DNA of 64,000 nucleotides from Candidatus Calescibacterium sp. (GCA_032249135.1 JAVVGL010000001.1:144283-208282); one strand, 5' to 3'; shown: positions 2,384 to 59,660, counted from the first letter of the stretch. Numbers and translations: made by a program. Notes: generated by a model not told the origin, from the sequence alone.

Positions 2384-2546
2384 AAAAAGAATAAAGAATA
2401 AAAAAAGAATCAGGAAAGAAAAAATAAAGAAAAAATGGTAAATTCAAAAAGTGAAAGTATAGGTAAAAGAAAATAGAATGTAGAAAGAATGAATAGATAG
2501 GAAGAAGGAGAAGGAAAAGAAGAAGAAAAGGTGGAAGAAGAGGAAG

Positions 2547-3005: not shown

Positions 3006-3016
3006 CTTCTTTATCT

Positions 3017-4741: not shown

Positions 4742-4781
4742 ATTTTTTCTTGAAATTTCTTATACTTTCTCTTAAATTTAT

Positions 4782-5279: not shown

Positions 5280-5333
5280 AAAATAAAATTTAAAAAAGAG
5301 ATTCAATAAAAACTTGCATATTAAAATAAAGTG

Positions 5334-6365: not shown

Positions 6366-6375
6366 TTAGTAATAA

Positions 6376-7233
6376 ATGAATAACTATAATTATCATCAGC
6401 TTCACGATATTCTTGCAGTTACAGTCTCCTACAACAATTTTGAAGGTTTAAAATCTTTGTGTGAAAATCTTCTTTCCCAAAGTCTTAAACCTAAAAAAAT
6501 TTTTGTTGTTGATAATGCGTCAGAAGATGATACGCCAAAGATAAAAGAGCTTTTTCCTGAATTTGTGATATATAAAAGACTTCCAAAAAACTTAGGAGCA
6601 GATGGTGGATATTACTATGCTTTATCTTTTGCATATAAAATTTCCGACTTTATCTTTACAACAGATGATGACACTTTGTATCAGGAAGATGCCCTACATG
6701 AACTTTTTTTTGGTTTCTTGGAGCTTGAGAAAAAATTCTGTGTCGGAGCTGTAAGATGTGCATGGGAAGGATTTGAAGGAAATGAGCCGAAAGAGGTTTT
6801 CTCTTCTGTCTGGACAGGAGTTCTTTTTAAGTCAGCTGTTTTAAAAGTTGTTGGGTTTCCTCGCAAAGATTTTTTTATATATGGCGGGGATGATGAATTC
6901 TTTACAAGAATGACAAAAAAAGGCTTCAAATTTTTTCTTATTCCATCGGCAAAATATCTTTCAAGACCATCGCGACATAAAGCTCAATATTCTGTTTTTG
7001 GAAGAAAGATAAGTTTTTACCCTGATGATTTCAGGCTTTACTATTCAATAAGAAACGAAACTTTCATATACTCGCGCATCAAAAGAAAAGACTTTCTAAA
7101 AGTTTTGAGGAGAATCTTAATCCTGTCTTTAATAATCAGAGATAAAAACAAAGTAAAAACTATCTTTGAGGGATTTTTTGATGGGATTTTTGGAATACTC
7201 GGAGAAAATAAAAAGTACTCTACAAAAAGATAA
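6376..7233 (+). CDS. GT2-family glycosyltransferase
   Basis: VVDNASED, N.GADGG, TDDD, FFIYGGDDEF motifs. Confidence 0.85.
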   Translation: MNNYNYHQLHDILAVTVSYNNFEGLKSLCENLLSQSLKPKKIFVVDNASEDDTPKIKELFPEFVIYKRLPKNLGADGGYYYALSFAYKISDFIFTTDDDTLYQEDALHELFFGFLELEKKFCVGAVRCAWEGFEGNEPKEVFSSVWTGVLFKSAVLKVVGFPRKDFFIYGGDDEFFTRMTKKGFKFFLIPSAKYLSRPSRHKAQYSVFGRKISFYPDDFRLYYSIRNETFIYSRIKRKDFLKVLRRILILSLIIRDKNKVKTIFEGFFDGIFGILGENKKYSTKR

Positions 7234-7253
7234 AAAGAAAAAAACTTTCATTT

Positions 7254-10500: not shown

Positions 10501-12213
10501 TTAAAAATCATCAATGTTGACAAAAAATATTCCTTCGGGTTGTTGCCAAATTAATCCATACTTCGTGAAAATGCCATAAGTTCCTTCGTGAATTATCCTG
10601 AAATCTTTGAAATCTAATGTCTCATCTCCAGAAGAAATCGCTACTTTACCACCCTCTATCCATGTCACATATATCTTATTACCTATAACAACTATCTCTG
10701 GCTTCTCTGATTTTATCCCCGGACTTTTTGATATATTCCTGATTTTGAATTTTTTGGCATTTTCTGCCCCAAAATCCGGCATTCCTGAGTAATCGTATGT
10801 GATAACCTTTCCATCGGGAAGTTTTAATGTTGACGCCCCAACAAGAATTGGAGCTTGCAGTATAAGAACCTCATGTTCTCCCTCTATAACTCTTTCAAAA
10901 GCCAAATAGAAATTTTTTGTATCAGTTGCGCAAGAAACATATTTTACATCAGAAAGATACGCTGGAATATAAAATGGTTCTAACTCCCTATCAGAAAACT
11001 GAGGATATGAGCGTAAAATATTAATTACATCCAAAAGCTGGCGCTTAAACTGAAAGACCTTCACTCTGTATCCGAACCCATCGCTCCATACAGCATAAAA
11101 GTTTCCTCCTCCACCGCATATTCTTGGATGTATCTCAAATGGTATTTGTAAATAACAGGACTCGCAATAGGTATAAGTCATAATTTCTGAAAATGTTTCC
11201 CCAGAATCTTTTGAATATGAGCACTTTACTCTTGCATCTCTAACCCCCTTGTTGTAATAGCAAATCATAACTTCTCCTTTGTCTGCAAATATATCTGGGA
11301 AATAACCATTATCAAAACTTGCTTTGAACTTAAAAGATTTGGAATCTAATTTATATTTCCCATAGTAAAATCCAGAGCCAGCGCTTGCAACAGAATGCAG
11401 AATATCACCATCTAAATCTATTCTTATAGATGCCTGTCCAAAATAGATAGTCTTTAATTCACGATTTACCATTACTATTGCCTCGGAATTTACAAGGTCA
11501 TTCCATGCAACTATCAATCCATCAGAATCATCAACATCAAATGGAACTTCTGAATACACATTGGTTATAGATGAGGCAGAAAAGACATACACTGCATCAG
11601 TGACATATCCACCATATCCATCAGTGCAAATAAGAGTGTGCTTAAATTTTCCTGATGTTGTAGGTGAAAATGGGAATTCTCCGGGAATTTGTATTTTGAA
11701 ATCACTTACACCATCGGAGTAAAAATCAACAGAACAAATTACTTTATCTCCGTCTGGGTCGTATCCATCAACTTTTATTTTCAAACTCTCTCCCGGGGTT
11801 GTCACATAGTTTTTATTAGTAGATATATATGGGGTGTTATTTTCTGGGAAAACTTTGATGGTAGTGTAAGATTTTGCTATGCTTTTGCCTGTCACAAGTG
11901 TAGCTGATACAACAAAAACAGTCTCTTCTGAGACTTTATATGTATGTTCAACATAGGGAACGGTTGTTTTTTCTGAAGAACCATCTCCAAAATCCCAAAT
12001 GATTTCAAATTTGTCAGAATATGCAATTGAGGCATAAAATTTGACAGAAAGAGGACTTTTTCCTTCGGTAGGATAAGCATAAATAAAGATAGAAGATCTT
12101 TCAATTTCAATTACTCTTTCCTTGCAGTAAAAAGTAAAAAACAACAAAATACTTAAAAAAGTAAGCGAAAATTTCTTATTCGTATTGCAATTTAACATCA
12201 ATTTCAAACTCAT
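10501..12213 (-). CDS. PKD-domain putative lipoprotein with C-terminal propeller-like (BNR/sialidase-like) region
   Basis: Signal ending FFTFYC; G.SPLSVKF, WDFGDG, HTY (PKD); DPDGD Ig-like motif; YSKDSGETF Asp-box. Confidence 0.65.
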   Translation of the reverse strand: MSLKLMLNCNTNKKFSLTFLSILLFFTFYCKERVIEIERSSIFIYAYPTEGKSPLSVKFYASIAYSDKFEIIWDFGDGSSEKTTVPYVEHTYKVSEETVFVVSATLVTGKSIAKSYTTIKVFPENNTPYISTNKNYVTTPGESLKIKVDGYDPDGDKVICSVDFYSDGVSDFKIQIPGEFPFSPTTSGKFKHTLICTDGYGGYVTDAVYVFSASSITNVYSEVPFDVDDSDGLIVAWNDLVNSEAIVMVNRELKTIYFGQASIRIDLDGDILHSVASAGSGFYYGKYKLDSKSFKFKASFDNGYFPDIFADKGEVMICYYNKGVRDARVKCSYSKDSGETFSEIMTYTYCESCYLQIPFEIHPRICGGGGNFYAVWSDGFGYRVKVFQFKRQLLDVINILRSYPQFSDRELEPFYIPAYLSDVKYVSCATDTKNFYLAFERVIEGEHEVLILQAPILVGASTLKLPDGKVITYDYSGMPDFGAENAKKFKIRNISKSPGIKSEKPEIVVIGNKIYVTWIEGGKVAISSGDETLDFKDFRIIHEGTYGIFTKYGLIWQQPEGIFFVNIDDF

Positions 12214-14012: not shown

Positions 14013-17000
14013 TCAGTTGCAGGTTGGATAAGCTTCACATTTGCCAGTTGATGGATTAAAGCTTCCGCCAGCGCAAGTCGGATTTCGCTTACACAAACGT
14101 GAAGCAGGATCATCAAGAGGACATGTCCATCCACACTCTATACCATCATCATCACACGATACCTCTGTCCATCCAGAAGGGCAACTATTTATGCTACTGC
14201 ACCAGGTATTACAACCTCCGTTAATTCTGTAATAGCACGTTTTATCTTCTGAGCTGTACCAACACCTACTCTTAGCTCTTTCGTTACAGCTTTTACCAAT
14301 ATAACCAGAACAGCCATCGCAATCGCTATCGTTTGGTTCTCTCTCACATTTTCCAGTTGATGTATTTAATGTATATCCACTTGGGCATTTTGTTGGGGGG
14401 CAAATTGACGAGTTAGAATCATCACAATCAACGCATGCGCGACAACCATCGCCATCATTATCTGCCTCCCAGCTTGGAATTACTCCATCACAGTTATCAT
14501 CAATCCCATTACATATTTCAGGTGCTCCAGGATGTATAGATGAAATTAAATCATTGCAATCTCCCGCACATATGCGCCAACCGTCTCCATCTAAATCTAA
14601 TTCATTCCAAGGTACTACGCCATCACAATTATCATCTATACCATTGCAAGATTCTGGTGCTCCCGGATGTATTTGATCGTTATAGTCTTTGCAATCATTA
14701 TTGGCAGTAACATATCCTGGGGGACCCGGGGGACACGCCTCTATAGGTGAGTGACCGATGCACCACCACACACAAAAGGTCCAAAATGATTCGCAACAGT
14801 ATAAATAGTCGCCAGTTCTTCCATATCCATCACCATCATCATCATACCAGTATGTGACTTTCACTCCTTCGTCTATTTGTCCATTGCAGTTATTATCTTT
14901 ACCATCGCATACCTCTGGATTTCCTGGAAATTTTGCAGAATCCTTATCATCACAATCTCCTTGGCAAATTCTATATCCATCTCCATCTTCATCCTTTTCG
15001 TTTGTGATATCCCCATCACAGTTATCATCCTTTCCATTGCAAATTTCAACTGCATCGGGATGAACGGAACTATCTGAATCATCACAATCTAAGTCATTTG
15101 CCACATATCCTTGTGGTTGAGAAGGAGCGAAAACTAACTCATTAGGATCACCATAGCCGTCGCCATCTGCGTCTTTATAAAATGCAACAAGTATTTGAAC
15201 TTGTCCCTCAACATATTGTGACCAAAGACCAGTCGTATCTTTTACTCTATATCTTACTGTGTATATTCCTGGTGAATTATAAGTATGAGATGTTTCTTTA
15301 CATACTCCCAGTTCACATACTCCCAAAGTTTCGCACACTCTTAGTGCTTCCTCCGTTATTGAGCCTATAGTAGGATTCGTTCCATCTCCAAAATCCCACT
15401 CACATTCTTCGATTAAATTTCCATCTTGTTCATAGAAGCTTCCTTTAAAATCTACTTTTACACCTCCACTGGGGAATTTTAAGAAATAAAAAGGAAGTAT
15501 CTTTTCCCCCACTGCACAAATTTGGCCAATGCTGGGATCCGGATCTGGATAACATATAGTAAAATTAGCAGTTGGTGGATTATCAGGAACACTCACATCA
15601 AAAAATGGTAATCTAGTTCCATCAAGTGAAAATGTGTTTCCATTTGCTCTTATTGTATAAAAGAACCTTATTGTTTTTGTATTATGGTCAATAAACCTTC
15701 TGAATCTCCGATTCTTTATATATATACTTGGCCGAACTTTCTCCGCTCTCAAGTTGCTGAGGTTCCATAAACCCCTTAGCTGCGGAACACCAGTTCTTGA
15801 TAAAATAAACATATCATCTCCGCATAGTTGATCCCCTTGCCATGGGCAGTTTGAGTTTGGTGTAACTATTAGATCATAATTTGCAGACTCCCCAGGAAAT
15901 GCATAAAAAATAGGAGATATTATACCTATCATAGATGAACCCTCTATTCTATCCAGCATAATGGAAGGTGTTCTACTTATTTCTGCAAGATATGCTGAGG
16001 CTATGGTTCCAAGTCTTATTTCATCCATTAAATCTTGATTTTCTATTGTATCGGTGGCACAATCCAGAAAAGCATTGAAGAATGACTCTATGCTAGAATA
16101 ACCCGCACCCACAGATCTTATAGCACACTCTGCAAGCTTATCAACTATATCACCGTACCTATTTCTTAAACGCCAAAGAAATGAATACCAAAGACCTCCA
16201 TTATAATGTGACTCATTTATAAGGTCAGATCGCAGAAAAGTTCTGTTATTTATAGCATTATCAAAAGTATAATTATTAGGATTTGCTCCTAATATATTAG
16301 CCCAATCTCTTATTGAAACTGCATAGATTTGCCTTTTGTATAAATTGACCATAACATCAGCAAAGTAATCTGCAATACCCTCTGTAAGACTTCTATAAAG
16401 ATCTCCCCATCTTTCTTTTTCACATTTTACCACATGGCAGTGGTGAGCATGTGAATATTCGTGGAAAACAACGAAAGGAGTTCTTGAAGCAAGAAATCTA
16501 CAAAGAGTTATGTTATAACTAACATCCGCCAAAAATGGATCTCCAGGGGAAAAACCAGCATTTTGGCATTTTCCATATGCACATATGTTTTTTGGCGGCC
16601 AACTTCGTTGTGGTTCTGTGTATCTTCTGTAATCTACATAAAGAGTTTCTATAATTGTTTGAGTGGCTCTATCCCCGAATCTTGAAGCATCGTCGAAAAA
16701 TCTCCCTGCCATAGTTGCCCAGAAATATGCTGAAGCCATTTCAAATTCATGCGGATTCATAACAGGGTCATAACAGAAATCTCTATCTGGTTCATTTATT
16801 ACCGGAGGAGGTTGGCATGTCCTTCCCGGACACAACTCATCGCACCGGGAACAACAGTAGTCTTTAGGATCTGAAAATATACAGCCCAGTAGTGTAAAAA
16901 CGCCAATAGTGCACTCTTGACTATAAGAAATACATTGATTACAGTAAACTGGTCCTTCATAAGTGAGATCAGCATCTGTTACTCGTCTTACATATTTCCC

Positions 17001-18766
17001 AGATAAATTTTGACCGGTAACATCTGGAAATCCAACTCGGCTAACACTACTCGTAGGACAAGCCGTCATGTTGTCTGGTTCACGTTGGAATTGCTGTTCA
17101 GCTGTACATATACATCCACACCAATCAGTACATGGGGGAAGCTCCGAGAAGATGAGGTCAGAAATTTCCACAAGACTTCCATCAAAAGCATCAATCCATA
17201 CCCAAAACCTTCTTGCAATAGTAAGAATGAGAATTTTGTACGCCAAGTGTAAAATCCCATTTTTATCCCTTATTATTGTCAAGTAATATATTGGAGGAGC
17301 AAATTGTAATTCTTCCGGTTGCAGTGAAAATAATGAAAAAATACGAGACAAAACATCTCTTGGGCTTAACTTAGGTATTGTTGGAAAAGTTTCAGGAATA
17401 ACATAATATTCTCCGAATATCGATCTAGGATTTCCTTCTGAATTAGTCCTCACAATAAGTTCGGTTTCCACTGGAATTCCTTTGAAAAACTGTTTAAACC
17501 TTATAAATGAAGCGTAACCTAAATTTTCAACTTCCTCTATTTTTAAATCTCCAAGATCTTCCTTGAAACCATAAACATCTTTAAGCTCGCTCAAAAAAGC
17601 TACTACTCCCTCTATTGTTCTTATGCCTTCATAAGATACTATTGTAAAATATGAAAAAACAAGGGCAGGGTTACCTGCCTTATCTTTTATCTTCACTCGA
17701 AGATTATGTGTATTTTCTGTAAGCTGTTCAGAAGGTGTAAAGTAAGCTCTGTTTTCCTCAACCCGAAATTTAGAAGTAATCTCCTCCCTATCCAAAAATA
17801 TTCGGAAAGATTCTTTAAGAATCCCTGATGTTTCATCCCAGAATTCAATCAAAAAATATGGAGTTTTACTTTGTATCAAAGCTCCGTATTGAGGTGATGA
17901 AACAACTATAAAAGGAGGCACTGTATCTAATACAAGAGATGCTCTTTCTGTCCTCATCTCTCCTACCTTCTTTATCATTGTTCCACCATTTCCTAACTCA
18001 TCCTCTCTTTCAACAAGAAGATAAACAGTGTAATAGTAAGCTCCGTCTGGTTGAATTTTACCTTCAAAATCCTTCCCATTCCATATTGTTTTCATGTTTT
18101 TTCTTACATAGTGACAAGCTTTACCTTGCTCAATAGGTTTTAAGTCCCAAGTAACGCAATCAAAAGGAGGCAAGATTTCTTCTTTGAATGAGGAAAATTC
18201 ATTTATTAGCTTCCCTTTTTCATCATAGATAGAAAGCGACCATGTCAGAAAGTATCTTTTTACATCTCCTTTACCTTGTGATTGAAGTGCATCTGTATGC
18301 TTTACAAGAACTATAAAAGAAAACTCAACTTCATCAAGATGTCCATCACCATTTGGGGAGAAATAATCGGTTGATCTATCAAATTTTCTCAAACATACCT
18401 TTCCAGTTTCATCACAAACTGGGGATTGAAGTGGAGATGCAGTAATTGTTAGTGGTCTTGAAGGTGTGATTTTTACACCCTCAAAAAAATGGTTTGGAAT
18501 AGGCTTTTTCTTCGTATACTTTCCTCCAAATACAGCAATGGGATTCCCAAGAACATCATTCCAGTCAGCTTTCCAATTACCTCCATTTTTTCTGTTAAAT
18601 TCCTCAAAAGCTTTCATTTGATCTTTTGTTGGTTCCCCAGTAGAAGCATTATTGGAAATCACTGCAATAGATATCAGCAAAATAGAGGATAATATAACTC
18701 CGTAAAGATTTAGGCTCCCCCCCCAGCCTTTTTGCTATCTTTTAGCATTTTTCTTTCCACTTTCAT
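14013..18766 (-). CDS. Large secreted Zn-metallopeptidase (M4/M36-like) with Ig-like, propeptide, PKD and MopE-like repeats; 5' end frameshifted at G8 tract (continuous ORF 14013..18680)
   Basis: FSPNGDG and WNGKD..G (FlgD-Ig-like); F.QF.KGIPVE and W.WIDAFDG (FTP/PepSY); HEYSH plus LTEGIADYF; WDFGDG..HTYNSPGIY; four full DCDD..PGA.E.CNG.DDNCDG-type repeats. Confidence 0.75.
18717..18724 (-). repeat. G8 homopolymer in signal-peptide coding region of the large peptidase
   Basis: cccccccc on + strand; G9 or G6 would join ATG 18766 to the main ORF. Confidence 0.9.
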
Positions 18767-20835: not shown

Positions 20836-23025
20836 TTATTGTTTGAGACTCATAATGCTGTCGGGAAGATGTCTATTTAATTTTGTTCTATCACCCAATT
20901 GTCCCTCTCCATTTGCTCCCCAGCACCACAGAGATCCATCTTGCTTTATCGCACAGGTATGAGAACCACCAGATGATACATCCGATATATCTCTCATAAT
21001 TTCAACTGGGTAAGTTTTATCTTTGTTTGTTCCATCACCAACTTGACCTGTAAGATTTCCTCCCCAACACAAAAGAGTACCATCTCTCTTTACCGCACAA
21101 GTATGTTTATGACCTGTTGAAACTCGCAAAATATCATTTGTAATTAAGATAGGAATATTTTTATTTTTCCTGGTTCCATCTCCTAATTGTCCGTCTCCAT
21201 TTGCTCCCCAGCACCACAGAGATCCATCTTGCTTTACCGCACAAGTGTGTGACCCACCAGCCGATACATCTATTGCCCCATTCATAATTTCAACCGGATA
21301 TGTTTTATCTTCGTAAGTTCCATCTCCAACTTGCCCATATTTATTCCATCCCCAACACCAAAGTGAGAAATCCTTCTTTATTACGCAGGTATGGAAAGCA
21401 CCGGCAGCTACTCGCAAGACATCCGTGGTAATTAAAACAGGGAAATTTTTTCCATCAAAAGTTCCATCACCTAATTGTCCTTCCTCATTTCCTCCCCAAC
21501 ACCAAAGTGAGAAGTCTTTTTTTACCGCGCAGGTATGTCTATAACCTGCTGAAACTTGCAAGACATCTGATGTAATTAGAACAGGAAAGTTTTTATCTTC
21601 AAAAGTTCCGTCTCCAAGTTTCCCTTCCTTATTTTCCCCCCAACACCACAAGGAATTATCCTTTCTTACGGCACATGTGTGAAGAGAACCTGCGGAAACT
21701 TGTATTACATCAGAGGTAATTTTGACAGGATAGTTTTTATTTTCATAAGTTCCATCGCCTAACTGACCATATCTATTTGCTCCCCAACACCAAAGTGAGT
21801 TATCTTGTTTTATCACACAAGTGTGCAATGCACCTGCTGAAACCTGCAATATTGCGGGAAGAATAGCAACTGGCAAATTTCTATCCTCAAAAGTTCCATC
21901 ACCGAGCTGTCCTTCCTTGTTTCCTCCCCAACACCGCAAAGAACCATCGTATCTTATTACGCATGTATGCCTATAACCCGCTGAAACATGCAAAACTCCG
22001 AGAGAAACTATTGTTGGCAAATTTTTGTCTTCAAAAGTCCCGTCTCCCAATTGACCTTCCCAGTTTCCTCCCCAACACCAAAGTGAGGAGTCGCTCTTTA
22101 CTATACAGGTATGCCTATAACCTGCTGCAACTTCAATGACATCGTTTGTGATGAAGACAGGAAAATTTTTATCTTCAAAAGTTCCATCTCCAACTTGTCC
22201 ATATTTATTCCACCCCCAGCACCAAAGGGATTTATCTTTCTTTATCGCACAGGTATGAGATTCTCCTGCTACGACTTTGATGACATCGTTTGTAATGAGG
22301 ACAGGAAAATTTTTATCTTCAAAAGTTCCATCTCCGAGTTGCCCATATTTATTCCAGCCCCAGCACCAAAGTGAGTTATCTTTCTTTATCGCACAGGTGT
22401 GGAAAGCCCCTGCTGCAACTTGCAAAACGCCGGTGGTAATTGTCACTGGTTCGTCTTTGTTTATATATGATCTGTCACCCAGTTGCCCTTCCCAGTTCCC
22501 TCCCCAACACTGAAGTGTTCGGTTTTGTTTCTTTATTGCACAAGTGTGGAAAGAACCAACTGCAACATCTAAAACATTGAAGGTAACAAAAACGGGAAAA
22601 TTTTTGTTTTTTGTGGTTCCATCTCCAATCTGTCCATATTGGTTCCATCCCCAGCACCATAAAGAGGCGTCCTTCATTACAGCACAAGTATGAAAAGCCC
22701 CCGATGAAACCTTGGAAACTTTGGAAAAAATTTTATTGGCTAAATTTTTATTTTTATATGTTCTATCACCTAATTGCCCGAATTCATTCCATCCCCAGCA
22801 CCAGAGAGAACCATCTTTCTTCAGAGCGCATGTATGAAAAGCTCCTGAGCTAATTGAAATTATATCCGATAAAGCTTCCGATATTAGAGCTTTTTCTTTT
22901 TTCATCTCTGATTTGAATAGTGTGAAAGATAAAATACAGAAGATGGGACTCAAAATTTTTATTATGATTTTGCTTTTCCTGTTCTCTGATGCATCAAGTC
23001 TTCTCCTATTTACTCTGAAATTCAT
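20836..23025 (-). CDS. RCC1/BLIP-II repeat protein, 14 repeats of ~48 aa
   Basis: 14 copies of AG..HTCA.K.D.SLWCWG.N..GQLGDGT..P. Confidence 0.9.
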   Translation of the reverse strand: MNFRVNRRRLDASENRKSKIIIKILSPIFCILSFTLFKSEMKKEKALISEALSDIISISSGAFHTCALKKDGSLWCWGWNEFGQLGDRTYKNKNLANKIFSKVSKVSSGAFHTCAVMKDASLWCWGWNQYGQIGDGTTKNKNFPVFVTFNVLDVAVGSFHTCAIKKQNRTLQCWGGNWEGQLGDRSYINKDEPVTITTGVLQVAAGAFHTCAIKKDNSLWCWGWNKYGQLGDGTFEDKNFPVLITNDVIKVVAGESHTCAIKKDKSLWCWGWNKYGQVGDGTFEDKNFPVFITNDVIEVAAGYRHTCIVKSDSSLWCWGGNWEGQLGDGTFEDKNLPTIVSLGVLHVSAGYRHTCVIRYDGSLRCWGGNKEGQLGDGTFEDRNLPVAILPAILQVSAGALHTCVIKQDNSLWCWGANRYGQLGDGTYENKNYPVKITSDVIQVSAGSLHTCAVRKDNSLWCWGENKEGKLGDGTFEDKNFPVLITSDVLQVSAGYRHTCAVKKDFSLWCWGGNEEGQLGDGTFDGKNFPVLITTDVLRVAAGAFHTCVIKKDFSLWCWGWNKYGQVGDGTYEDKTYPVEIMNGAIDVSAGGSHTCAVKQDGSLWCWGANGDGQLGDGTRKNKNIPILITNDILRVSTGHKHTCAVKRDGTLLCWGGNLTGQVGDGTNKDKTYPVEIMRDISDVSSGGSHTCAIKQDGSLWCWGANGEGQLGDRTKLNRHLPDSIMSLKQ

Positions 23026-26813: not shown

Positions 26814-27494
26814 TTATTCAACTTTAAAAAACGGGGGAAGAACTTCTGTTTTGTGTTTCACATCTTTTTGGCACATCAGCGCAAAAAAATCTGATTTAGA
26901 TAGAGGTGAATGATGAAAAAACTTTAAGAACACTGGTTTCAATCCTACCTTGTAAAAGTTTGAGAGAACCTCCCCAAGTCTAAAAGATGGATAGACAACA
27001 TATACCCTTCCCTCCTTTTCCAAAATGTTTGAGGATATTTTTGCAAGTGTTTTGAGGTCAAGGTGTATTTCCCATTTTGCTATATCTGACTTTTTTGAAA
27101 TCTTTCCCTCTCCTCTCGGTAAGTAGGGAGGATTAGAGACTACAATATTGAACTTCTGTTTGAAGTTTATTTGTTTTATATCACCGCATATTATATGAGC
27201 TTTCACATTATTATTTTTGTAATTTAAACCTGAAACCAAAGCCATTTTTTTATCTATTTCTACCGATACAAGAAATTTTTCGCCTTTAAGCCACCTTGAA
27301 AGTAAAATCGTTATGATTCCACATCCGCTCCCTATTTCAAGTAATTTCTTCTTCTTATCTTCTATTTTATTTTCTATCTCTGCCGTGAATTTTGCAAGAA
27401 AAATTGAATCATCTGAGAACTTCCATTTATCTTTCAACTGAAATATGCTTACATCAAAAATTTTAGTTTCTTCAAGTTCATATTCTTGGAACAT
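26814..27494 (-). CDS. SAM-dependent methyltransferase (tRNA1(Val) A37 N6-MTase, TrmN6/YfiC-like)
   Basis: FS.DS..LA.F, LEIGSGCG, SNPPY. Confidence 0.8.
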   Translation of the reverse strand: MFQEYELEETKIFDVSIFQLKDKWKFSDDSIFLAKFTAEIENKIEDKKKKLLEIGSGCGIITILLSRWLKGEKFLVSVEIDKKMALVSGLNYKNNNVKAHIICGDIKQINFKQKFNIVVSNPPYLPRGEGKISKKSDIAKWEIHLDLKTLAKISSNILEKEGRVYVVYPSFRLGEVLSNFYKVGLKPVFLKFFHHSPLSKSDFFALMCQKDVKHKTEVLPPFFKVE

Positions 27495-27660
27495 AAGACC
27501 AAAATAATAAAATAAAATAATAACCTAAACATTGTTGTTTAGATGATTTTGAAAAAATCCGGAAAAACTCTGAATTTTCCTAAAACCTCCAAAATCACAA
27601 ATTCTTGACTTCTTTATCAAAAATGATTATTGTTTTTTATATAGAGAAAGAAAAATAAAA

Positions 27661-27667
27661 AAGGAGG
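27661..27667 (+). promoter_or_regulatory. Shine-Dalgarno for ATG 27678
   Basis: AAGGAGG 10 nt before ATG. Confidence 0.8.
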
Positions 27668-27677
27668 AAACCAAAAA

Positions 27678-30600
27678 ATGTCTGCGAATGTAAAGAGAGA
27701 GAGAGAGAGAGGTTGGACGGAAGCTCAATAGAGGATACCTCACTTCCTTCTTCTTCATCTCTCCTTTCTCCCTTTTCTCATTTTTCTCTCTTTTATTTAT
27801 TTTCAGTTGCCAAAAAGAATCAAAAAGCAAATTTTTCATATCAGAAAAAGGTGGAGTTGTTGAAAAAGATGAGTTGAAAATAGTTATTCCAGATGGTGCT
27901 TTGGATGAACCAAAAGAAATTGAAATCAAAAAAGTAAAAATGAAAGGTGCAGTAGGTCCCGCATTCCAAATCTCTCCCGACATCAAATTCAAAATCCCTG
28001 CCGAAATATCTATAAAATATGAAAATAATAGCAATATCAACATCAAAACACAACAAAAAATAAAAGAAGAAGAGTTTTTGAGAATTGCTTTCTATGATAA
28101 TGATAACAAAACTTGGGTACCTTATGAAAGCTATTTTGATGGACAAAGAGTTTTTGCAAAAACAGACCACCTTTCAACATGGGCTATCGTGAGCGATATG
28201 CTCTTCCCTGACCCTTCATCCTCATTCTCATCTTCTTCTTCATATGAACCACCAGCGGGTGAAGTCCCGCCACTCAAAGTAGAAGAGTTCAGTGTGCAAA
28301 ATTTTAGAATGTCATCAAGATTTTCCCAAAAGAGTGAATCAGAACTCAGCTATGAGGAGTTTTCAATTGGGAATTTTGCATCAATTTTGAGGGTAGATGA
28401 AGAAGGGAATGTTTGGTTTGCAGAACATGGATTTTTGAACCAATACGCAACTTATATTGGAAAACTTGATACAAGAACTGGTCAGGTGAAACTCTGGTGG
28501 CTTCCAGCTGGAAATTGGGTATCAGATATAGAGGTAAAAGGCAGATATGTTTGGATAGTTTTGAGGTTAGGTCCTGACCTTGTGAGGTTCAACATGGACA
28601 CAGAGACTTTCAAGTATTTCAGGGTTCCATCATATATAGGAAGTTGGCCATATGAGATAGATTTTGATGGAGATGGGAACATATGGATGACGGTGACAGT
28701 AGGGAGAGCGGTAGCAAAGTTTGATGTGAGACAAGAAAGTTTTGTTTTTTATTTCAGGATACCAGTTGGTTGGTGGACAGCGGGAGTGAAAGTAGATGGT
28801 AACAAAGTATGGGTGACAGAGACATATTCTTGCGTAGGACCGTTCATTTACTATGTGAATGAGGGGAGGTTGAAACAGCTTTACCCATCAGAAAGATTCT
28901 GTCCCGGGACATTTTACATTTTGGAGGGAAAAGCGGTAGGAGGTATGGGAGGAGATAGGTTAGGGATTTTGGATGAGGAAGGAGTATTAGATGTTCATGG
29001 GATAGGATTAGAGTTCAGTGGATGGATGGGAGTAAGAAAGGAAGATAGGAGTGTGTGGGCAGGGGGAAATAACTATGTTTTTTGGTATTCGGTAGGAGAA
29101 AGGATGATAAGAGGTAGGGCAAATTTTGAGAGTGGAGCAGGAGTGATAGCGGTGGAGGTAGATTTTGAGGGGAATGCGTGGGCAATTTTGAGGAATGTAA
29201 AGAAGGTGGTGAAGATAAAGTCAAAACCTGTTGTTTTAGGATGTGATAAGACATGCGGAGGTGGAGATGAGCAAACACCACTTGTTCATATAGGGCATAA
29301 TCTTCATGTAAATTTAGTCTCAGGTAATCTTTATGAGGTTTTCCCTCTATTTGAATTTGATCCCGATTCATTGGGTTTGCAAGTTAGCTTGATTTACAAT
29401 AGTTTAGACGAAAGTTCATCGTCTTTAGGACCAAGGTGGAGAACAAATTGGGATATAAGAATTATTCCCAAAGGGGAAGATTTAATTCTTATTTGGGAGG
29501 ATGGAAAAAGAATAATCTACAAAAAAGTTTCACAAGGTACCTGGATATCGGATGAAAGAACAGCTTTCAAATCTATTCCCAAAATAACTTTTGATGGTTC
29601 TAACTATATTCTCCACCAAAGGGGAGGAACAATAAGAAAATTTGATAACGAAGGTAAAATTATTCTTATTGAAGATAGGAGAGGAAACAGATGGAATTTC
29701 ATATATGAAGGTAATTTGTTAGTTAAGATTGTTGATCCTGTTGGGAGAAACATAGAATTCAAATATTCTGACGGAAAATTAAAGTCAATCAGAGATCCCA
29801 TAGGAAATGAATGGGAATTTAGTTATGATGAAAGCGGTAGACTTGCTGCAATAAAAGACCCTCTTGGTGGTACTACTCATTATATTTACGACAATATGAA
29901 TAGAATAATTGAAAAGAAAGATGCTCTTGGGGTTCCTTTGAGGATAGTTTACGATGAAAAAGGTAGAGTTGCTAAATCAATAGATATGAAAGGACACGAG
30001 CTTTCCATAGCTTATAGTGGCAATACTGTTATCTTAACCAGCAGAAGAGGAATTACCCAAAGAATTGAGGTTGATAGTAATCTTAATGTTATTAAATTGC
30101 AAAGCGATCAATTGGGTAATACATATAGATTTGAGTACGATGAAAGGGGAAATCTTATAAAGCAAATTACTCCATCTGGATTAAAGTTTGAGTATAAGTA
30201 TGATGATGAAGGAAACTTGGTACAAATAAAAGAACCCACAGGTGCAACCAAAAGCTATAAGTATAACCAATTCGGAGATATTGTGGAATATAAAAACGAG
30301 GCAGGTGGTATTTGGAGATATGAATATGATGAAAAAGGAAATCTTATAAAGGAAATAGATCCTGTTGGAAGGGAGAAAAAATTCTTCTACAGCACCTTGG
30401 GAAACTTAACTGCAACAATTGATCAACTCGGAAGAGTGTGGAGATATTCGTACGATGAATATGGTCATCTCAAAGAAGAAATAGATCCACTAGGAAATGT
30501 TAGAAAATACAGCTATGACATACTTGGAAGATTGATTTCACAGAAAAGTCCAAGAGGATATACAGTAACCTACGAGTATGACGCTCTTGGTAGATTGATA

Positions 30601-33600
30601 AAATTCACCGATCAATTAGGAAACAGCTTTATTCGGGTTTATAATTCTCGGGGAGAAGTTATATATAAAGAAGATCCTCATGAAGGAAGGTTAAGACTTT
30701 ACTACGATTACAATATGAACCTCACAGCTGTTGTCGATGAACTTGAAAGAATTGGATATATGAATTACGACCATGACGGGAATCTTATTGAGAAAATAGA
30801 TTTTGGTGGGGGTAGATGGGTATTCTTTTATAATGAATCAAATCTCCCAGTAAAAGCAGTAGATCCACAAGGCGGTGAATGGAATTTTGAATATAATGGA
30901 GATGGAAAAAGGATCAGGGAAATTCTACCTTCCGGTGCCGAGACAAAGGTAATATTAGATGAAGCCGGAAGAATAGCGAGAGTTGAATTTTACGATGGAG
31001 TAATTCTTACAAGAACTTATAACATAATGGGACTTATAGTTGAGGAATCTATAAATGGTTTAGCAACACGGTATGAATATGATCTTGCAGGTAATCCTGT
31101 AAAGGTTGTCAGCCAAGATGGCTCAATCATATTTTATGATTTTACTGGTAGAGTTACAGCTACTACTGATCCTGCTGGCAATGTAACCTTATATCAATAT
31201 GACTTTTTGGGTAGGCTGATAAAAGAGGTGAAGCCAGATGGAGGAATTTATGAATACTCTTACGATTCCGAGGGTAATTTGATATCTAAAAAAGATCCTC
31301 TAGGTAACATTACAAGATATGAATATGATGCTTTGGGTCGAGTTATAAAAATCATAGACCCCAAAGGTGCTGAAACATCTTTTACATATGCCCCAAAAGG
31401 GAATGTCACTTCTATAACAGATCCGTTGGGAAGAAAAACACTTTACTACTATGATGCTTTAGGAAATGTTACGGCGGTTGTTGATCCTTCTGAAAGGGTG
31501 ACAAGATACATTTATGATTCAGCGGGAAATGTCATAGCAATTTTGGATCCTGACGGAAGGTGGGTTAGTTTCAAGTATGATACATTAGGGAGAGTTATAG
31601 AAAAAAATATCGGTGGAAGGATTTGGAAATATAAATACGATATAGGTGGTAATCTCATATCCGTTATAGATCCTCTGGGGAATGAAACAAAATATACATA
31701 CGATATTTACGGGAGAATAGTTTCAGAGGAGGATCCACTGGGCAGGGTTATACACTATAAGTATGATAAGTTCGGAAATCTTATAGAGAAAACATACCAT
31801 AACAACATCAGAATATCCTATAAGTACGATAAATTTGGGCGTGTTATAGAAAAGGTTTATCCTGACAACACAAAGGTAACTTATGAATATGATAGAGCTG
31901 GTAGGTTGGTGAGAGCAAAGAATAAGGATATTGATATTTCAAAAACATATGATTCTATGGGTAGGATAAGAGAAAACACATTGAAACTACCTGGATTCCC
32001 ATCTTTCACTATCTATTATGAATATGATCGGCTTGGGAGGAGGACAAAAATGATAGATCCTTTTGGTGGGGTTTTCAAATATTACTATGATGAAACAGGA
32101 AACTTAATATCTCTTGTGAACTCCGAGGGAAGGGAGTTTAGGTTTGAGTATAATCTTGCAGGTGAAAGAACGAAGGTAATATATCCTAACGGTATCGTTG
32201 CAGAATATTCATATAACGGATGTAATGCTGGCTGCAAAAGTAGTATGAGAGTTTCTAATATAACAATAACCAAAGATGGAAAGGAATTACTGCTTTCTTT
32301 TTCTTATAAATATGATGGGAGCGGGAATGTTACAGAAGTTGAAGAACCAGATAAAATTATTTCCTATTTTTATGATGACGCTAATGAGCTTGTTGGAGTA
32401 GATGTAAAGCACAAAAGAAAGGAGGAAAAAGATTACTTGTTCAGATATTTTTATGATCTTTTTGGGAACAGGGTTGGTATGAAAATTGAATCAAAAGATG
32501 AAGGTCTCCCTTTTGACCCTAACTTGCAAAGAACTCTGGATGGATTTCCAAAACTTAAACATCCGTTAGAAATTTTCTATCTATTTGACAATGCTAACCA
32601 AATCATTTATGAGGAGGCAAGAAGGAGGAACGGAAGTACATATTATAAAGTTTTTTATGAATTTGATCCTGTTGGGAACCTTTCAAGAAAATTAGTCCAG
32701 AATTTTGAAGGTGGCAAAGTTGAGGAATTTTTAACTGAGTACATATATAACTTTGAAAATAAACTTAAAAAGATTATCTACCAAAAAGAAGGGGAAAAGA
32801 AGGAAAACTCGTTTTTGGTTTCTGACATAGATTCAAAAGTTTATAGGAGGAGTGATAGTAAAGGGGAAGTCAAATACTTTATATATGATGGAGAGAATAT
32901 TCTTGCAGAACTTGATGAGAAGGGGAATTTACTAGCAAGATATACTTTTGGTCTTGGGGTAGATGAGATTTTGGGGAAGATTGAATTTAAGAAAAAAAAC
33001 GGAAAAGGGAAAAACGGGAATGGAAAAGGCGAATCACAGAAACAGAAAAATGAATTTTTCTACCATGTGGATGGAACTTTGTCTGTAAGAGCTATAACAG
33101 ATGAAAGAGGGAATTTGGTAGCAAAGTATGATTATGATCCGTTTGGACGACCATTAAAGGTATGGGGAGGGGAAGAGGCAAGGGAAAACGTATTTTTATT
33201 TGGAGGTAGGGAATATATTCCAGAGGCAGGGATTTATGATTTCAGAGCAAGGGCGATGGATCCAAGATATGGAAGATTCACGCAAAAGGATCCAGTATTG
33301 GAGGCAGGGGGAGAGGATGGTAAAAGAAGACTTATTGAAAGGGGAACATCAAAGTTGTTCTGGAATCCATATGTTTACGCTGATAACAATCCGCTCAGAA
33401 ACAAAGATCCTTTTGGGCTCTACATAATACTTTGTGATACAAGAGATAAGAGGGTATGGAGAGCAACAAGAATTGTTGATAAGAAAATATTCAAAGAAAA
33501 GTGCGTTGGAGGTGGATGGCCATTTGGTTTGGGAAGTTGCCTCAGGAGAATTTCATATACTGTGACAATAAAATGTGCAAGAATGGATCGTTGTGGTAAA

Positions 33601-33828
33601 GCTTTTCATATCATAGATGTTTGGCTCAAACATGGTCTTGTCTTCAGTAAAAGTGCCGACGAAAAAACAGTAACGAACTGTTTACCATGCTTAAAATCAA
33701 TGACAATAGAAGAGGTAATTGCATCAACTATATTACATGAAATGGTACATGTCTGCTGCAGGGGTGAGAATACTGCGGATAGGTGTGAGAGAAAATGTTT
33801 TTGTGGTTCGGACGAAAAATGTCCATAA
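27678..33828 (+). CDS. RHS/YD-repeat polymorphic toxin-like lipoprotein (ZU5-like, Vgb/NHL-like propeller, DUF6531-like, YD shell, RHS core, HEXXH tip); frameshifted at (AG)9 (track ORF 27874..33828)
   Basis: IP.GAL..P..I, F..PAEISI.Y (ZU5-like); G.VWF/WMT propeller blades; VNLVSGNL..YNS..LGPRW; many Y.YD..G.L repeats; YDPFG, YDFRAR..DP..GRF.Q.DP, NPYVYADNNPL...DPFGL; ILHEMVH. Confidence 0.9.
27694..27711 (+). repeat. (AG)9 dinucleotide repeat at codons 6-12 of the RHS gene
   Basis: agagagagagagagagag; (AG)10 or (AG)7 would join ATG 27678 to the main ORF. Confidence 0.9.
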
Positions 33829-34952
33829 ACCATAGCATGGTTCCGTTTTTTCTATTTCTGTTATTATTATTTTATTTCCCACTTTCATTTCATAGTTGTA
33901 TTACTTATTGGTGTCATTATACTCCCAATTATGATCCAGTGTATATTGAAGGTAAAATTTATTTCGTTGATGTTAGGGGAACGCTTTACATCATAGACCA
34001 ACAAGGTAAAGTAGATAAGATAAAATTGGTAAAGGAAGGAGAAAAGGTAGAGGAATGGGGGATATTTTATCGTCCAATAGTACCTTGTGGCAACAGAATT
34101 TTTATAAACATAAAAGAGCAAAGCATCATATCACTGAACTACCAAGGCGAACTAACAGAATATAAGGTTGAAGAAGCTAAATTTTCTCCTTACTTCTTCC
34201 TCTATTGCACAACACAAGGCTTATTTATGATAAACCAGGATATTATGATTCCCCCAGATAATAGAATAATGAGAATTTTTGACATCTCTGACTTACTTTC
34301 TCCAAATAGGGAAATAAAACCAAAACTTTTAGGCGAATTTGATAAAGTTTGCGAACCTCTTGGAATCAGAAATTTCTTTCCTTTTCCTTCTTCCAATATT
34401 TGGCTTATTTGCCGAGATAAAAACTATAATTATAAAGTTTTCAAATTTGATCCTCAAACCTCCAATTTTTTTGAAGTATCAGAGTTTGCAGGATTGTATT
34501 CAACTTTGATTTATGATAGTATAATAATACGTGTCAAAGGATTTTGGAGTGAAGGTAAGTATATTTATGCTATTATAGCAAGAGACATAAGTGGAAATTT
34601 ATTATGGAAAAGAGAATTTGATCACTACTGGGAAAGATCATTTTTAATTGGAGGAGCAATAGTAATGTTAAGACAGGATATTAAAGAACATCATAGGCAA
34701 ATCAAAACAATTTTGGAAAAATATATTTTCCTATCTCCTTATACCGGTGAAGTACTTTTAGAGAAGGATATAAGATTTGAGGTACCAGGATATATAATTG
34801 GTGAAGAAATAACTCCTGAATGGGAACTTTATATCATATGGATTAATGAAGAAAAAGCAAAAAAGGAGATATTGCTACTTGATCTGAAAAATGGTGGAGT
34901 AAAATGGAAATTAGATTTAGATTTCGCTCCTCCCACGTGCATTAAAAAATAA
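33795..34952 (+). CDS. PQQ/BamB-like beta-propeller putative lipoprotein; candidate immunity protein 1 (start may be 33819 or 33837)
   Basis: Hydrophobic signal ending FHSC; GNLLWKR, LSPYTGEVL, LDLKNGGVKW; abuts or overlaps toxin stop. Confidence 0.6.
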   Translation: MFLWFGRKMSINHSMVPFFLFLLLLFYFPLSFHSCITYWCHYTPNYDPVYIEGKIYFVDVRGTLYIIDQQGKVDKIKLVKEGEKVEEWGIFYRPIVPCGNRIFINIKEQSIISLNYQGELTEYKVEEAKFSPYFFLYCTTQGLFMINQDIMIPPDNRIMRIFDISDLLSPNREIKPKLLGEFDKVCEPLGIRNFFPFPSSNIWLICRDKNYNYKVFKFDPQTSNFFEVSEFAGLYSTLIYDSIIIRVKGFWSEGKYIYAIIARDISGNLLWKREFDHYWERSFLIGGAIVMLRQDIKEHHRQIKTILEKYIFLSPYTGEVLLEKDIRFEVPGYIIGEEITPEWELYIIWINEEKAKKEILLLDLKNGGVKWKLDLDFAPPTCIKK

Positions 34953-34968
34953 TGAATAGTTTAGAAAA

Positions 34969-36300
34969 ATGCATTTGTATAATATAGTTGTACTAATACT
35001 AATTTTAATCTTTAATCTTTTAATCTTTACTCCATTTTGCTCCAATGATCAGGTCTTAAAGGAAGTTTTTTCTTGTCTTACTAGGTGGTATATTGAATGT
35101 ACACATCCTCCATACGAGTTATTACTCTGCAAAGATAAAATTCTTTTCTTAGATAGAAATGGAAGGCTTTGGAGCATTTCATCATCTGGTAATATAGATT
35201 GGGTAAAAAATACCGGCATTAAGAGAAATTTTTATGATGCTCTGCTAGCATGTGATGACTTTTCCATATATGTGGTCTCCAAAAACCAAATCATATCAGT
35301 TGATTTTGAAGGAAATATCACAAAAAGATATAACCTTGATTTCAAAGAAGAGTTTCATTTCAATGATGCTGTATTTATTGGCAAGAAACTAATTTTAATC
35401 TCACGGAGAAAAATTCTTGCTTTTGATATTGATAAATGGAAAATGATATGGGTAAAAGATGCTACTGAAAACTCTTTTCAGGATTTCACCTCTATTTCAG
35501 AAAATCAAGCTATTTTCTCTTCTAATTCAAACATATATAAGATAGACTTGCAAACAGGTGATGTAATCAACAAAATCTCATTAGAGGATTACTTCAAAGA
35601 AGAAAGATGTATTTTTCATATGCCTGTGGTGAATAAAGATTATGGTTATGTAGATGGTGTCTATTACTATCATGAAAACAAGTATCCTTCGCCACTATCT
35701 TATATATGGTTAAGATGTTATTATTACATTGATGGTAAAAGAAAAGAAAAGATTTTAGGTATTGAACCTGAAAATTTCAATATAGTCTTTCCTCCAACTG
35801 AAATTCCTAAATTCGGTCAGGTAGTTGGGATTTTTCAAGATAAATTGATTCTCGCAGATAATTTTCAAAATGGCAGCACCATCACTCTATACGCTTTGAG
35901 CGTTACCGGAGAAATTTTGTGGGAAAGAAAAATAGAAGGAATTGAATTTTTTGGTACAGTTCAACCTGGAGATGTTACAATTTATATATCAAAAGGTTAC
36001 AAGACAATATTTTTAGTTTATCCCTTTACCGGGGAAATTTTACATAAGACCACTGATATAAATATCAATTTTCATACTTTTACAAGAAAAGGAGCAGATG
36101 AAATAGGTGAGCTTTTAGATATAAAGAATGCAAAGTTGTATCTTTTATGGATTTACGGAGATGCATATGAGGAGAGAAAAGAAAGGAAAGGACTTTTGAA
36201 ATTAGATTTGAAAGAAGGGAAAATGGAATGGAATACTGAGATAAACTTTACCGAACCAGAGTGTCATAGAGATAAGATGCCAATAAGGTGGTATAGATAA
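34969..36300 (+). CDS. PQQ/BamB-like beta-propeller putative lipoprotein; candidate immunity protein 2, paralog of previous gene
   Basis: Signal ending TPFC; IDLQTGDV, TGEILWER, VYPFTGEIL, LDLKEGKMEW. Confidence 0.6.
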   Translation: MHLYNIVVLILILIFNLLIFTPFCSNDQVLKEVFSCLTRWYIECTHPPYELLLCKDKILFLDRNGRLWSISSSGNIDWVKNTGIKRNFYDALLACDDFSIYVVSKNQIISVDFEGNITKRYNLDFKEEFHFNDAVFIGKKLILISRRKILAFDIDKWKMIWVKDATENSFQDFTSISENQAIFSSNSNIYKIDLQTGDVINKISLEDYFKEERCIFHMPVVNKDYGYVDGVYYYHENKYPSPLSYIWLRCYYYIDGKRKEKILGIEPENFNIVFPPTEIPKFGQVVGIFQDKLILADNFQNGSTITLYALSVTGEILWERKIEGIEFFGTVQPGDVTIYISKGYKTIFLVYPFTGEILHKTTDININFHTFTRKGADEIGELLDIKNAKLYLLWIYGDAYEERKERKGLLKLDLKEGKMEWNTEINFTEPECHRDKMPIRWYR

Positions 36301-36314
36301 CCTACAACAAACTA

Positions 36315-36725
36315 CTACTTATCTGATGATTTTTCTTCTTCTGTTTTTGGTTTCAATCTTTGTTTTATTTCTGGTAAAACCTTTTCTGCTATATCTGGAA
36401 TAAGGTTTATCGCTTTTTCTAAAAGTGCGGATTGCGGTTTTGATGTTGAATGAAATACGGCTTGACCTTCATCTGTTATGACAAGCAATCCTATTGGCTC
36501 AACCGATATAGCTCCACCAGAAGCCCCGATTTCTTTTTCAGACCGAGAACCAGCCATAAATCCTATCTTCAACTTAGAAAGTGGAATAATACATGCTTTC
36601 CCAACTGTTATAGGCTTTCCGACAATTGTTTCGGAACTTACCACATCTTTTATTCTCTGAAACAGAGAATCAAGAATACTCTCAAGACCCGATGTATTAC
36701 TTTTCCCTTTTTCTTTTTCCTCCAT
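36315..36725 (-). CDS. GerW/YtfJ-family protein
   Basis: TIVGKPI.VG...IIPLSK..IGF.AG...GASGG.ISVEP.G.LVI. Confidence 0.8.
   Translation of the reverse strand: MEEKEKGKSNTSGLESILDSLFQRIKDVVSSETIVGKPITVGKACIIPLSKLKIGFMAGSRSEKEIGASGGAISVEPIGLLVITDEGQAVFHSTSKPQSALLEKAINLIPDIAEKVLPEIKQRLKPKTEEEKSSDK

Positions 36726-59628: not shown

Positions 59629-59660
<32 letters not shown>

Follow-up and report, generated by a model that had tools for sequence, protein, structure and literature searches.

An RHS toxin gene with a lipoprotein-type leader and a proposed AG-repeat switch in an uncultured hot-spring bacterium

Introduction

Polymorphic toxins built on rearrangement hotspot (RHS) repeats are commonly viewed as steadily made weapons that are tied to a secretion machine. 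In WapA of Bacillus subtilis, the PAAR-Rhs effectors of the type VI secretion system (T6SS), and the TcB-TcC pair of Tc toxins, a YD/RHS shell surrounds a polymorphic toxin that is released at a DPxGL-type site, and an immunity gene lies downstream. WapA is exported by the Sec pathway and is independent of the T6SS. Here we examine an RHS gene and the two genes that follow it in a stretch of 64,000 nucleotides (nt) from Candidatus Calescibacterium sp. (GCA_032249135.1, JAVVGL010000001.1:144283-208282), which we call the window and whose numbering is used throughout unless a contig is named. We propose that this locus belongs to a family of lipoprotein-type RHS polymorphic toxins carried by an uncultured bacterium of hot springs, and that its translation is probably governed by slipped-strand changes in an (AG)n repeat.

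Contingency genes with a repeat in the signal-peptide region are known from other bacteria, such as the outer-membrane protein genes of Helicobacter pylori (CT/AG repeats) and the Neisseria genes opa (CTCTT) and pilC (poly-G).

Two described groups of proteins come closest in domain content. As set out in the available text of Zhang et al. (2012; PMC3482391), ZU5 autopeptidase domains, whose catalytic motif is written ‘CxH’, stand at the N-terminal end of large RHS proteins, in many cases together with beta-propellers and with Sec-dependent export, and ZU5 is linked to the SpvB/TcdB-TcaC route. According to the same text, HExxH metallopeptidase tips (Tox-MPTase1-5) occur on RHS proteins, and beta-propellers were not found among immunity proteins. 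The second group is the bacterial teneurin-like proteins (TLPs; Raoelijaona et al. 2026, PMC13018210), whose Gram-negative members, in the available portion of that paper, have a predicted Sec/signal peptidase II (SPII) leader and are T6SS-independent. They carry an NHL propeller and a YD shell in the order FN-plug, NHL, shell, with a PxxxxDPxG autoproteolysis motif, a polymorphic C-terminal domain of ~15 kDa, and an immunity gene directly downstream (PMC13018210). An initial annotation of the window had proposed a new toxin system, a claim that does not stand because the architecture is already present in what these two sources describe. The new parts are the proposed repeat switch on an RHS toxin and the shared 5' head module that carries it; the HExxH tip family, also new, and the exported propellers as immunity candidates add to the interest of the locus.

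Results

A repeat tract between the start codon and the leader

The body of the RHS gene (protein P0001) is a single open frame of 2044 codons (27694-33828). The initial annotation had placed its start at the ATG at 27678 and had overlooked a frame break just downstream. That ATG lies in another frame than the signal peptide and the RHS body, and its open reading frame (ORF) encodes 17 amino acids (aa; MSANVKRERERGWTEAQ) before it ends at a TAG codon (27729-27731). Between the ATG and the leader lies an (AG)9 tract (Table 1), and the ATG joins leader and body solely when the number of AG units, n, equals 1 mod 3. In such a reading, (AG)n encodes (Arg-Glu)n in the n-region of the lipoprotein-like signal peptide. 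The leader itself is present in the RHS frame as had been claimed, though without a start codon of its own. No ATG, GTG, or TTG lies ahead of it in its frame, and the first canonical start in the RHS frame is a TTG at 27874, 3' of the leader, so that an ORF from there has no signal. When n equals 2 mod 3, a leader ORF of 61-67 codons stops at a TGA that overlaps this TTG.

The (AG)9 tract is the sole run of its kind in the window, and 0/100 shuffled sequences contain one. In the metagenome-assembled genome to which the window belongs (G000; 2.1 Mb, 51 contigs, 87% complete), no dinucleotide repeat is longer, and no other reaches 7 units. We counted the tract in 12 sequences, namely the window and 11 metagenome loci (L011-L021) whose encoded N-terminal 495 residues are 94-97% identical to those of the window. 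Five lengths were found: 5 units in L013; 6 in L012, L014, L020, and L021; 9 in the window, L018, and L019; 10 in L011, L016, and L017; and 11 in L015. The tract is in frame in three of the 12, all with 10 units. One of these, L011, reads MSANVKREREREVGRKLNRGFLIFF / MSANVKREREREVGRKLNRGFL...LIFSC-QKESK from the ATG, giving a complete lipoprotein-precursor ORF of 2035 aa. Unit number also differs between close relatives, as L015 and L017 (11 and 10 units) are 99.88% identical over 6737 nt with one gap, and L013 and L014 (5 and 6 units) are 99.54% identical over 6700 nt. As part of the explanation that we favor as a whole, it is probable that (AG)n acts as a slipped-strand phase-variation (contingency) switch, in which case the window copy reads as OFF.

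A similar order of start codon, simple-sequence repeat, and signal is found in two genes unrelated to this one. An RHS gene on contig C39 of G000 (1559-8593, - strand; locus L027), which is full-length with 2345 codons, begins with an ATG that is followed by a G8 tract (8568-8575) and then by a lipoprotein leader (..FLSFIDFGC) in another frame. Its leader region was not found in relatives. Judged from this layout, the C39 gene is likely a second phase-variable RHS gene. In the window, a gene for a 1555-aa exported protein with MopE/PKD domains (14013-18680, - strand) has a G8 tract at 18717-18724 (eight C on the + strand) between its ATG and an out-of-frame signal peptide.

A head module shared by several RHS genes

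In all 11 metagenome loci that cover the region fully, similarity to the window is limited to the stretch from 27575/27595 to 29271/29279 (92.6-96.0% over 1685-1718 nt), which we call the head module. The upstream flanks, RHS shells, tips, and downstream genes of these loci do not match the window. The 3' border of the module is the junction between the propeller and DUF6531 (..VLGCDKTCG then GG). Contigs from four public sequencing runs likewise stop at 27624/27682 and resume at 29226, and their loose ends lead into other contexts. Contig depth summed over the module was 2-10 times that of its flanks in the four runs, which can be taken only as a hint.

Further copies can be placed in G000 itself. 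Locus L011 consists of the end of contig C37 (99.9%), a module copy, and the start of C21 (99.8%), and L018 and L019 consist of C16, a module copy, and the start of C5. C21 and C5 each begin with an RHS fragment, and these fragments are accordingly the bodies of further module-bearing genes, which brings the number of such genes in this genome to at least three. We read the head module as a gene-converted cassette common to several candidate toxin genes. The ratio of nonsynonymous to synonymous substitution rates (dN/dS) of the module lies at 0.07-0.17 in 21/21 pairs among seven copies, and its frame is thus maintained by selection even though most sampled copies would be OFF.

The module includes a promoter-like site that is conserved in its copies. 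Sites of this kind occur in the region at chance level (36 found by consensus scan, 35.3 expected), and the sequence around this one resembles the regions upstream of other exported-protein genes. An element of ~100 nt (..CTTATCTGA..TTCAAAATCTTGACTT..AATGATTATATTTT) is found ahead of several exported-protein genes in G000 (C39 8620-8730, C4 69168-69273, C1 106804-106901, the starts of C13 and C14, and the end of C46), to be compared with positions 27575-27640 of the window. It may be a common strong promoter or regulatory element.

Domains of the RHS protein

Most of the parts that the initial annotation had named in P0001 were recovered (Table 1). The RHS/YD shell, the Rhs core, and the leader in the RHS frame bear out an RHS polymorphic-toxin gene with a Sec/lipoprotein-type leader. 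Profiles and motif positions likewise support the DUF6531-like segment, the YD shell, the core end, and the 135-aa tip. DUF6531 is a domain typical of the N-terminal side of RHS shells. In the shell, Pfam RHS_repeat matches 20 stretches (E 4e-155) and NCBIfam YD_repeat_2x matches 18, with partial matches to RHS_core. The Rhs-associated core (E 2.4e-14, residues 1814-1909) terminates in NNPLRNKDPFGL at 33385-33420, directly before the tip, and the PxxxxDPxGL pattern is intact. By analogy with other RHS proteins, PLRNKDPFGL would be the site of autoproteolysis.

The Ser-rich linker is present, and the propeller, described earlier as Vgb/NHL-like, resolves into a seven-bladed fold like that of virginiamycin B lyase. 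In an AlphaFold2 (AF2) model of the N-terminus built on a 13-row alignment (numbered as in P0005, from the mature N-terminus), the predicted local distance difference test (pLDDT) value is 80-95 over residues ~150-470 and 28 strands form seven blades. The top Foldseek match in the PDB is virginiamycin B lyase 2z2n (E 1.6e-11, template modeling score 0.84 by target, root mean square deviation 2.8 Å), and no NHL chain ranks better than 47 in the same list. Pfam Vgb_lyase matches at E 0.001-0.003, under its cut-off. Five distant relatives of the propeller (L009, L010, and L023-L025; 26-32% identity) are stand-alone secreted Vgb-like proteins and were rejected as RHS relatives.

For the region ahead of the propeller, ZU5 is a candidate assignment. 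The closest named Atlas cluster is ZU5 (0.88), a cluster in which 30% of the members carry the family. Against the assignment, the Pfam ZU5 score is 12.5 bits (E 0.18), under the cut-off of 21, and the pLDDT is <45. A PDB sequence search with the region returned chance matches only, such as myosin light chain (E 0.12). The region has no Cys, and it contains H-L-S within its DHLSTW motif, which we take to be reminiscent of the H-F-S self-cleavage site of ZU5 domains.

The tip and its relatives

The tip holds 13 of the 20 Cys of the protein and an HEMVH motif at 33736-33750, and a PDB sequence search with it returned no match. Only five real relatives emerged from a word-based search together with an exhaustive one over 1.84 billion representatives. 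The closest, P0006, is 96% identical. P0007 is 60% identical, with the same RHS end and a diverged middle, and P0014 forms the end of an RHS protein of 1881 aa that is 44% identical in its N-terminal region. P0018 and P0019 are small proteins, the latter with its own lipoprotein-type leader. Two further candidates, P0017 and P0020, were rejected as repeat-driven false positives. In all six sequences of the tip family, HEMVHVC, several Cys, an R-I-S-x-T-V-T-I-x-C block, and a C-G-x-x-x-H-x-x-D-V block are invariant. The tip belongs to a small unnamed HExxH family, which, if confirmed, would be a new Cys-rich toxin family. The metallopeptidase label given earlier was too firm: HExxH is invariant in 6/6 members, the tip matches no peptidase family, and from the motif alone we regard it as a putative zinc peptidase.

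The C-termini vary among homologs that share the N-terminus, as had been predicted. P0013, P0015, and P0016 have the propeller in common (86-95%) and carry other tips, and the window tip occurs in 0/12 module-bearing loci (L011-L022). We refer to the window tip as type A. Type B is found in C5, L018, and L019, and type C in L015-L017, L020, and L022. These three types have an HExxH...AY.C.C.C motif in common, and hhalign related A to B at 97.1% over 62 columns, A to C at 95.9% over 31 columns, and B to C at 84.8%. The type-C tip reaches E 0.14 against Tox-MPTase3, and the window tip matches no Tox-MPTase model.

Downstream genes co-vary with the tip

Each tip type is followed by downstream genes of its own type. 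Type A is followed by P0002 and P0003; type B by two paralogs of 383-398 aa that are 66% identical to each other; type C by one protein of 431-436 aa; type D, which has no HExxH, by one of 227 aa; and type E, which is rich in membrane helices, by one of 249-286 aa. No homolog of P0002 or P0003 was found in any of the 12 loci L011-L022. Because the downstream type tracks the tip type and neither protein occurs in these loci, P0002 and P0003 appear to go with the tip rather than with the export head. The downstream proteins of all five types start with a positively charged hydrophobic segment that we read by eye as an export leader. These putative leaders suggest that the toxins act outside the cytoplasm, in agreement with what had been proposed for the window protein.

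P0002 has a likely start at ATG 33837, and a 100%-identical homolog (371 aa) begins MVPFF; only five close homologs were found. Its Atlas model aligns to propellers of the PQQ_2/BamB type (template modeling score 0.52-0.64). P0003 matches the Pfam PQQ_2/ACSF4 propeller at E 4e-4 to 8e-4, under the cut-off. The two are paralogs (23% identity, E 2e-14; hhalign 97.6%), with Cys near both ends conserved, and each has an N-terminal hydrophobic leader ending in Cys. We take these two exported, paralogous, propeller-like proteins, whose genes co-vary with tip type, as candidate immunity proteins of the tip, a role that is probable within the explanation that we favor. A predicted complex of the tip with residues 34-385 of P0002, made with alignments, scored 0.02 relative to a mark of 0.32 and gives no verdict either way.

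A type-C downstream gene is also found on its own. On C16 (42950-44342), a module promoter is followed by the last ~22 nt of a type-C RHS gene and then by a gene for a 436-aa type-C downstream protein (90% identical), with no RHS body. Since no type-C tip was found in G000 either, this gene is a candidate orphan immunity gene.

Alternative explanations

Several observations weigh against the explanation that we favor. The lipobox of the leader, I-F-S-C, is non-canonical. In-frame tracts in 3/12 sequences are what neutral drift among lengths would yield. Contigs from four public hot-spring runs on 27000-36400 are interrupted at the tract, skip 27683-27723, and give no indel rows that would show variation in tract length within one clonal population. 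The module was not found in 6/6 other genomes of the family (82-86% complete) with ZU5-like and propeller queries. Pfam assigns no family to the tip and lists only C4 (E 0.014) and, on the HExxH stretch, SprT-like (E 0.24), both at chance level. The AF2 model of the tip (6-row alignment) is of low confidence, with a pLDDT of 43.5 and HEMVH in a predicted helix (residues 96-113). The downstream proteins that go with tips A, B, and C and with the Rhs core of a family genome, G001, show no detectable homology to one another (hhalign 0.3-9.8%). Furthermore, some alleles are damaged outside the tract. L015-L017 carry a TAG directly after the lipobox Cys together with a frameshift in the shell, C5 (2313-2315) and L019 (6334-6336) carry an in-frame TAG that L018 does not have, and L021 carries a TGG>TGA change (11246-11248) that L011 does not have.

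Because several alleles carry such irreversible lesions, part of the RHS family is decaying and toxin genes are being lost in parts of the population. Reassignment of TAG was considered for the in-frame stops and rejected, as the three stops include one TGA and 192/1174 long frames terminate in TAG. The genetic code of the genome is standard.

A stronger form of this view is that the whole family consists of decaying pseudogenes, in which AG length drifts neutrally after inactivation and no functional switch exists. Such decay would fit with 9/12 tracts being out of frame, with the extra nonsense and frameshift lesions in L015-L017, L019/C5, and L021, and with the remnant on C16 that retains a downstream gene only. 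We nevertheless consider it rather unlikely. Purifying dN/dS values apply to all 21 module pairs, including copies with an out-of-frame ATG. Among the 11 fully covered bodies, six are intact over 2044-2244 codons (the window, L011, L012, L013, L018, and L020). The layout of start, repeat, and signal recurs in the C39 RHS gene and the gene for the 1555-aa exported protein, and the tract is a genome-wide length outlier.

It is unlikely that P0002 and P0003 are, instead of immunity proteins, BamB-like accessory lipoproteins for RHS export or assembly, or receptor partners. Their resemblance to PQQ_2/BamB-type propellers would suit such a role, as would the statement in the available text of PMC3482391 that propellers were not found among immunity proteins. 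An accessory factor is harder to reconcile with the lack of homologs in the 12 module-bearing loci that have other tips, with the separate downstream type of each tip type, and with the persistence of an analogous downstream gene on C16 without any RHS.

We regard as very unlikely the possibility that P0001 is a teneurin-like adhesion or recognition protein with a structural or metal-binding, rather than toxic, Cys-rich HExxH domain. The cleavage motif of the Rhs core is intact, HExxH is invariant, and tips are exchanged between genes that are otherwise alike, in step with the genes downstream. Orphan tip cassettes with their downstream genes also follow the C21 gene, and orphan arrays are present on C3 and C8. 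An adhesion role does find support in the combination of propeller and YD shell, which resembles teneurin-like proteins as described in the available text of PMC13018210, in the tip model, from which no fold was obtained, and in the tip domain of P0019, which stands alone as a small lipoprotein.

Finally, an assembly or sequencing error in a gene that is always ON is extremely improbable, for although repeats invite errors and the window is part of a metagenome-assembled genome, twelve separate assemblies show identical flanks despite five tract lengths, the tract (<=22 nt) is shorter than a read, and the Joint Genome Institute (JGI) gene call for a 96%-identical homolog likewise begins at the TTG 3' of the tract (1984 aa).

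Features of the locus and its genomic setting

On the + strand, the RHS frame is followed by the two downstream genes and then by a convergent YtfJ-like gene. Housekeeping genes neighbor the operon (DnaK, a TetR regulator, RNase PH, a methyltransferase, NfeD, and a HisA/F-like protein). The public runs that contain this stretch are all labeled hot-spring, sediment, or freshwater metagenomes.

Table 1. Features of the RHS locus in window coordinates
Feature	Position	Strand	Basis or remark
5' head module (promoter region, ribosome-binding site, ATG, (AG)n, signal peptide, ZU5-like region, linker, propeller)	27575..29279	+	
Promoter-like site, TTGACT-17-TATTGT	27605..27633	+	Consensus scan; conserved in module copies
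Shine-Dalgarno sequence, AGGAGG	27662-27667	+	11 nt upstream of ATG 27678
ATG start codon, out of frame with RHS body in window assembly	27678..27680	+	
(AG)9 simple-sequence repeat, proposed slipped-strand switch	27694..27711	+	
Lipoprotein-like signal peptide ending in Cys (VGRKLNRGYLTSFFFISPFSLFSFFSLLFIFSC; ..FFSLLFIFSC then QKESK)	27712..27810	+	Translation, RHS frame
ZU5-like region (candidate), DHLSTW motif at 28165-28182	27811..28215	+	
Ser/Pro-rich linker (PDPSSSFSSSSSYEPPAGEVPP)	28207..28272	+	
Seven-bladed beta-propeller, virginiamycin-B-lyase type	28258..29220	+	AF2, Foldseek
DUF6531	29305..29520	+	Pfam PF20148, E 4.6e-11, residues 538-609 of P0001
YD/RHS repeat shell	29521..33132	+	Pfam, NCBIfam
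Rhs-associated core, DPRYGRF...DP and terminal PLRNKDPFGL	33133..33420	+	TIGR03696
135-aa Cys-rich HExxH tip, candidate zinc-peptidase toxin, stop codon included	33421..33828	+	
Exported beta-propeller protein P0002, immunity candidate 1	33795..34952	+	Likely start ATG 33837, 8 nt after RHS stop
Exported paralog P0003, immunity candidate 2	34969..36300	+	

G000 contains 10 Rhs-core matches. Both Lgt (three gene loci, four matches) and LspA were found in this genome. The claim that the system is independent of a T6SS is supported, as neither VipB/TssC nor PAAR was matched in the 87%-complete genome, in which VgrG and Hcp were not searched for. Pfam searches of P0001 found no PAAR- or VgrG-type domain and no SpvB match.

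Arrays of three orphan RHS C-terminal cassettes of ~450 codons each lie on C3 (120899-126890) and C8 (3-5274), with Cys-rich tips that carry HE.IT...LH..QDFW.HS motifs. The tip of the C39 RHS protein has HEGITWEA...LQDFFSHS motifs that resemble those of these cassettes. Among the six other family genomes, an Rhs core was found in only one (L037; G001 contig C28, 6765-8760). Its different Cys-rich tip has a membrane helix. The protein encoded next (360 aa) has propeller-like repeats behind a lipoprotein-like leader and is not detectably related to P0002 or P0003.

Two unrelated observations were made along the way. Intergenic poly-A runs of 22-29 bases occur in the window (59635-59660) and elsewhere in G000 (C1 805-829, C2 32837, C6 93246, and C18 35043). 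The window also encodes a 729-aa protein with 14 RCC1 repeats (20836-23025, - strand; E 4e-201 to an RCC1-like domain) next to a DUF3108 gene.

Discussion

Under the switch that we propose, the RHS precursor of ON cells would be exported by the Sec pathway, receive a lipid at its Cys, and end up in the outer membrane or on the cell surface. Self-cleavage of the N-terminal domain is possible, as is binding of the propeller to a ligand on the target cell. The YD shell would enclose the tip, which would be cut free after ..DPFGL, and the Cys-rich HExxH domain would then act as a zinc peptidase in the envelope of a neighboring cell. The two exported propeller paralogs would neutralize the tip within the periplasm of the producer itself.

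With a separate tract in every paralog, the subset of its toxins that a clone expresses would vary. A more far-reaching idea, which we think possible yet on the whole doubtful, is that this deep-branching hyperthermophile runs a combinatorial, stochastic arsenal. Gene copies with one gene-converted head would flip independently by slippage, and immunity genes would persist, even as orphans on the same promoter. Differently armed minorities would then be present at all times in a clonal biofilm at ~80 C, a form of bet-hedging analogous to Opa-type variation, and P0002 and P0003 would be the first beta-propeller immunity proteins.

The favored explanation would put a toxin gene under a mutational on/off switch like those of surface antigens in host-adapted pathogens, yet in a free-living thermophile of hot-spring biofilms, and the switch-bearing head would be reused by several toxin genes. 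If true, it would extend contingency loci to interbacterial toxins and to a candidate phylum without cultured members. It would also provide a clear example of a T6SS-independent, lipoprotein-routed delivery head for RHS proteins. Furthermore, it would add a Cys-rich HExxH toxin family and, as immunity candidates, exported propellers, a fold absent from immunity proteins according to the available text of PMC3482391. Among the matches listed in full-text literature searches, no paper ties such repeats to RHS toxins, and the literature on this lineage, as searched, makes no mention of RHS or toxins.

Set beside the known systems, the locus shares features with each and departs from each. WapA, PAAR-Rhs, and Tc shells differ from the window protein in that the latter has a lipoprotein leader and a Vgb-like propeller head, and no PAAR or TssC was found in G000; unlike WapA, it has no cell-wall-binding domain. 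It is like the ZU5, propeller, and RHS toxins in the available text of Zhang et al. (2012) in its propeller/RHS layout, Sec-type leader, and HExxH tip, whereas it has no SpvB match, a ZU5 score under the cut-off, and a tip without a match to a Tox-MPTase model. The teneurin-like arrangement suggested by the initial annotation is seen in the joint presence of propeller and YD shell, but the domain order differs from that given for TLPs in the available text of PMC13018210. Here the propeller (residues 189-509) precedes the DUF6531 plug (538-609) and is Vgb-lyase-like. That text describes neither a repeat switch (the word ‘phase’ has 0 occurrences) nor a shared multi-copy head module. A further difference from the TLPs is that the immunity candidates of the window are exported propellers of ~40-50 kDa.

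The repeat itself resembles those of the contingency genes noted above. As in these genes, it stands between the start codon and the core of the leader, the number of units sets the frame and varies among close strains, and each paralog has its own tract. The established cases concern surface adhesins and pili of host-adapted pathogens, whereas the cargo here would be an RHS interbacterial toxin and the bearer is a free-living hyperthermophile.

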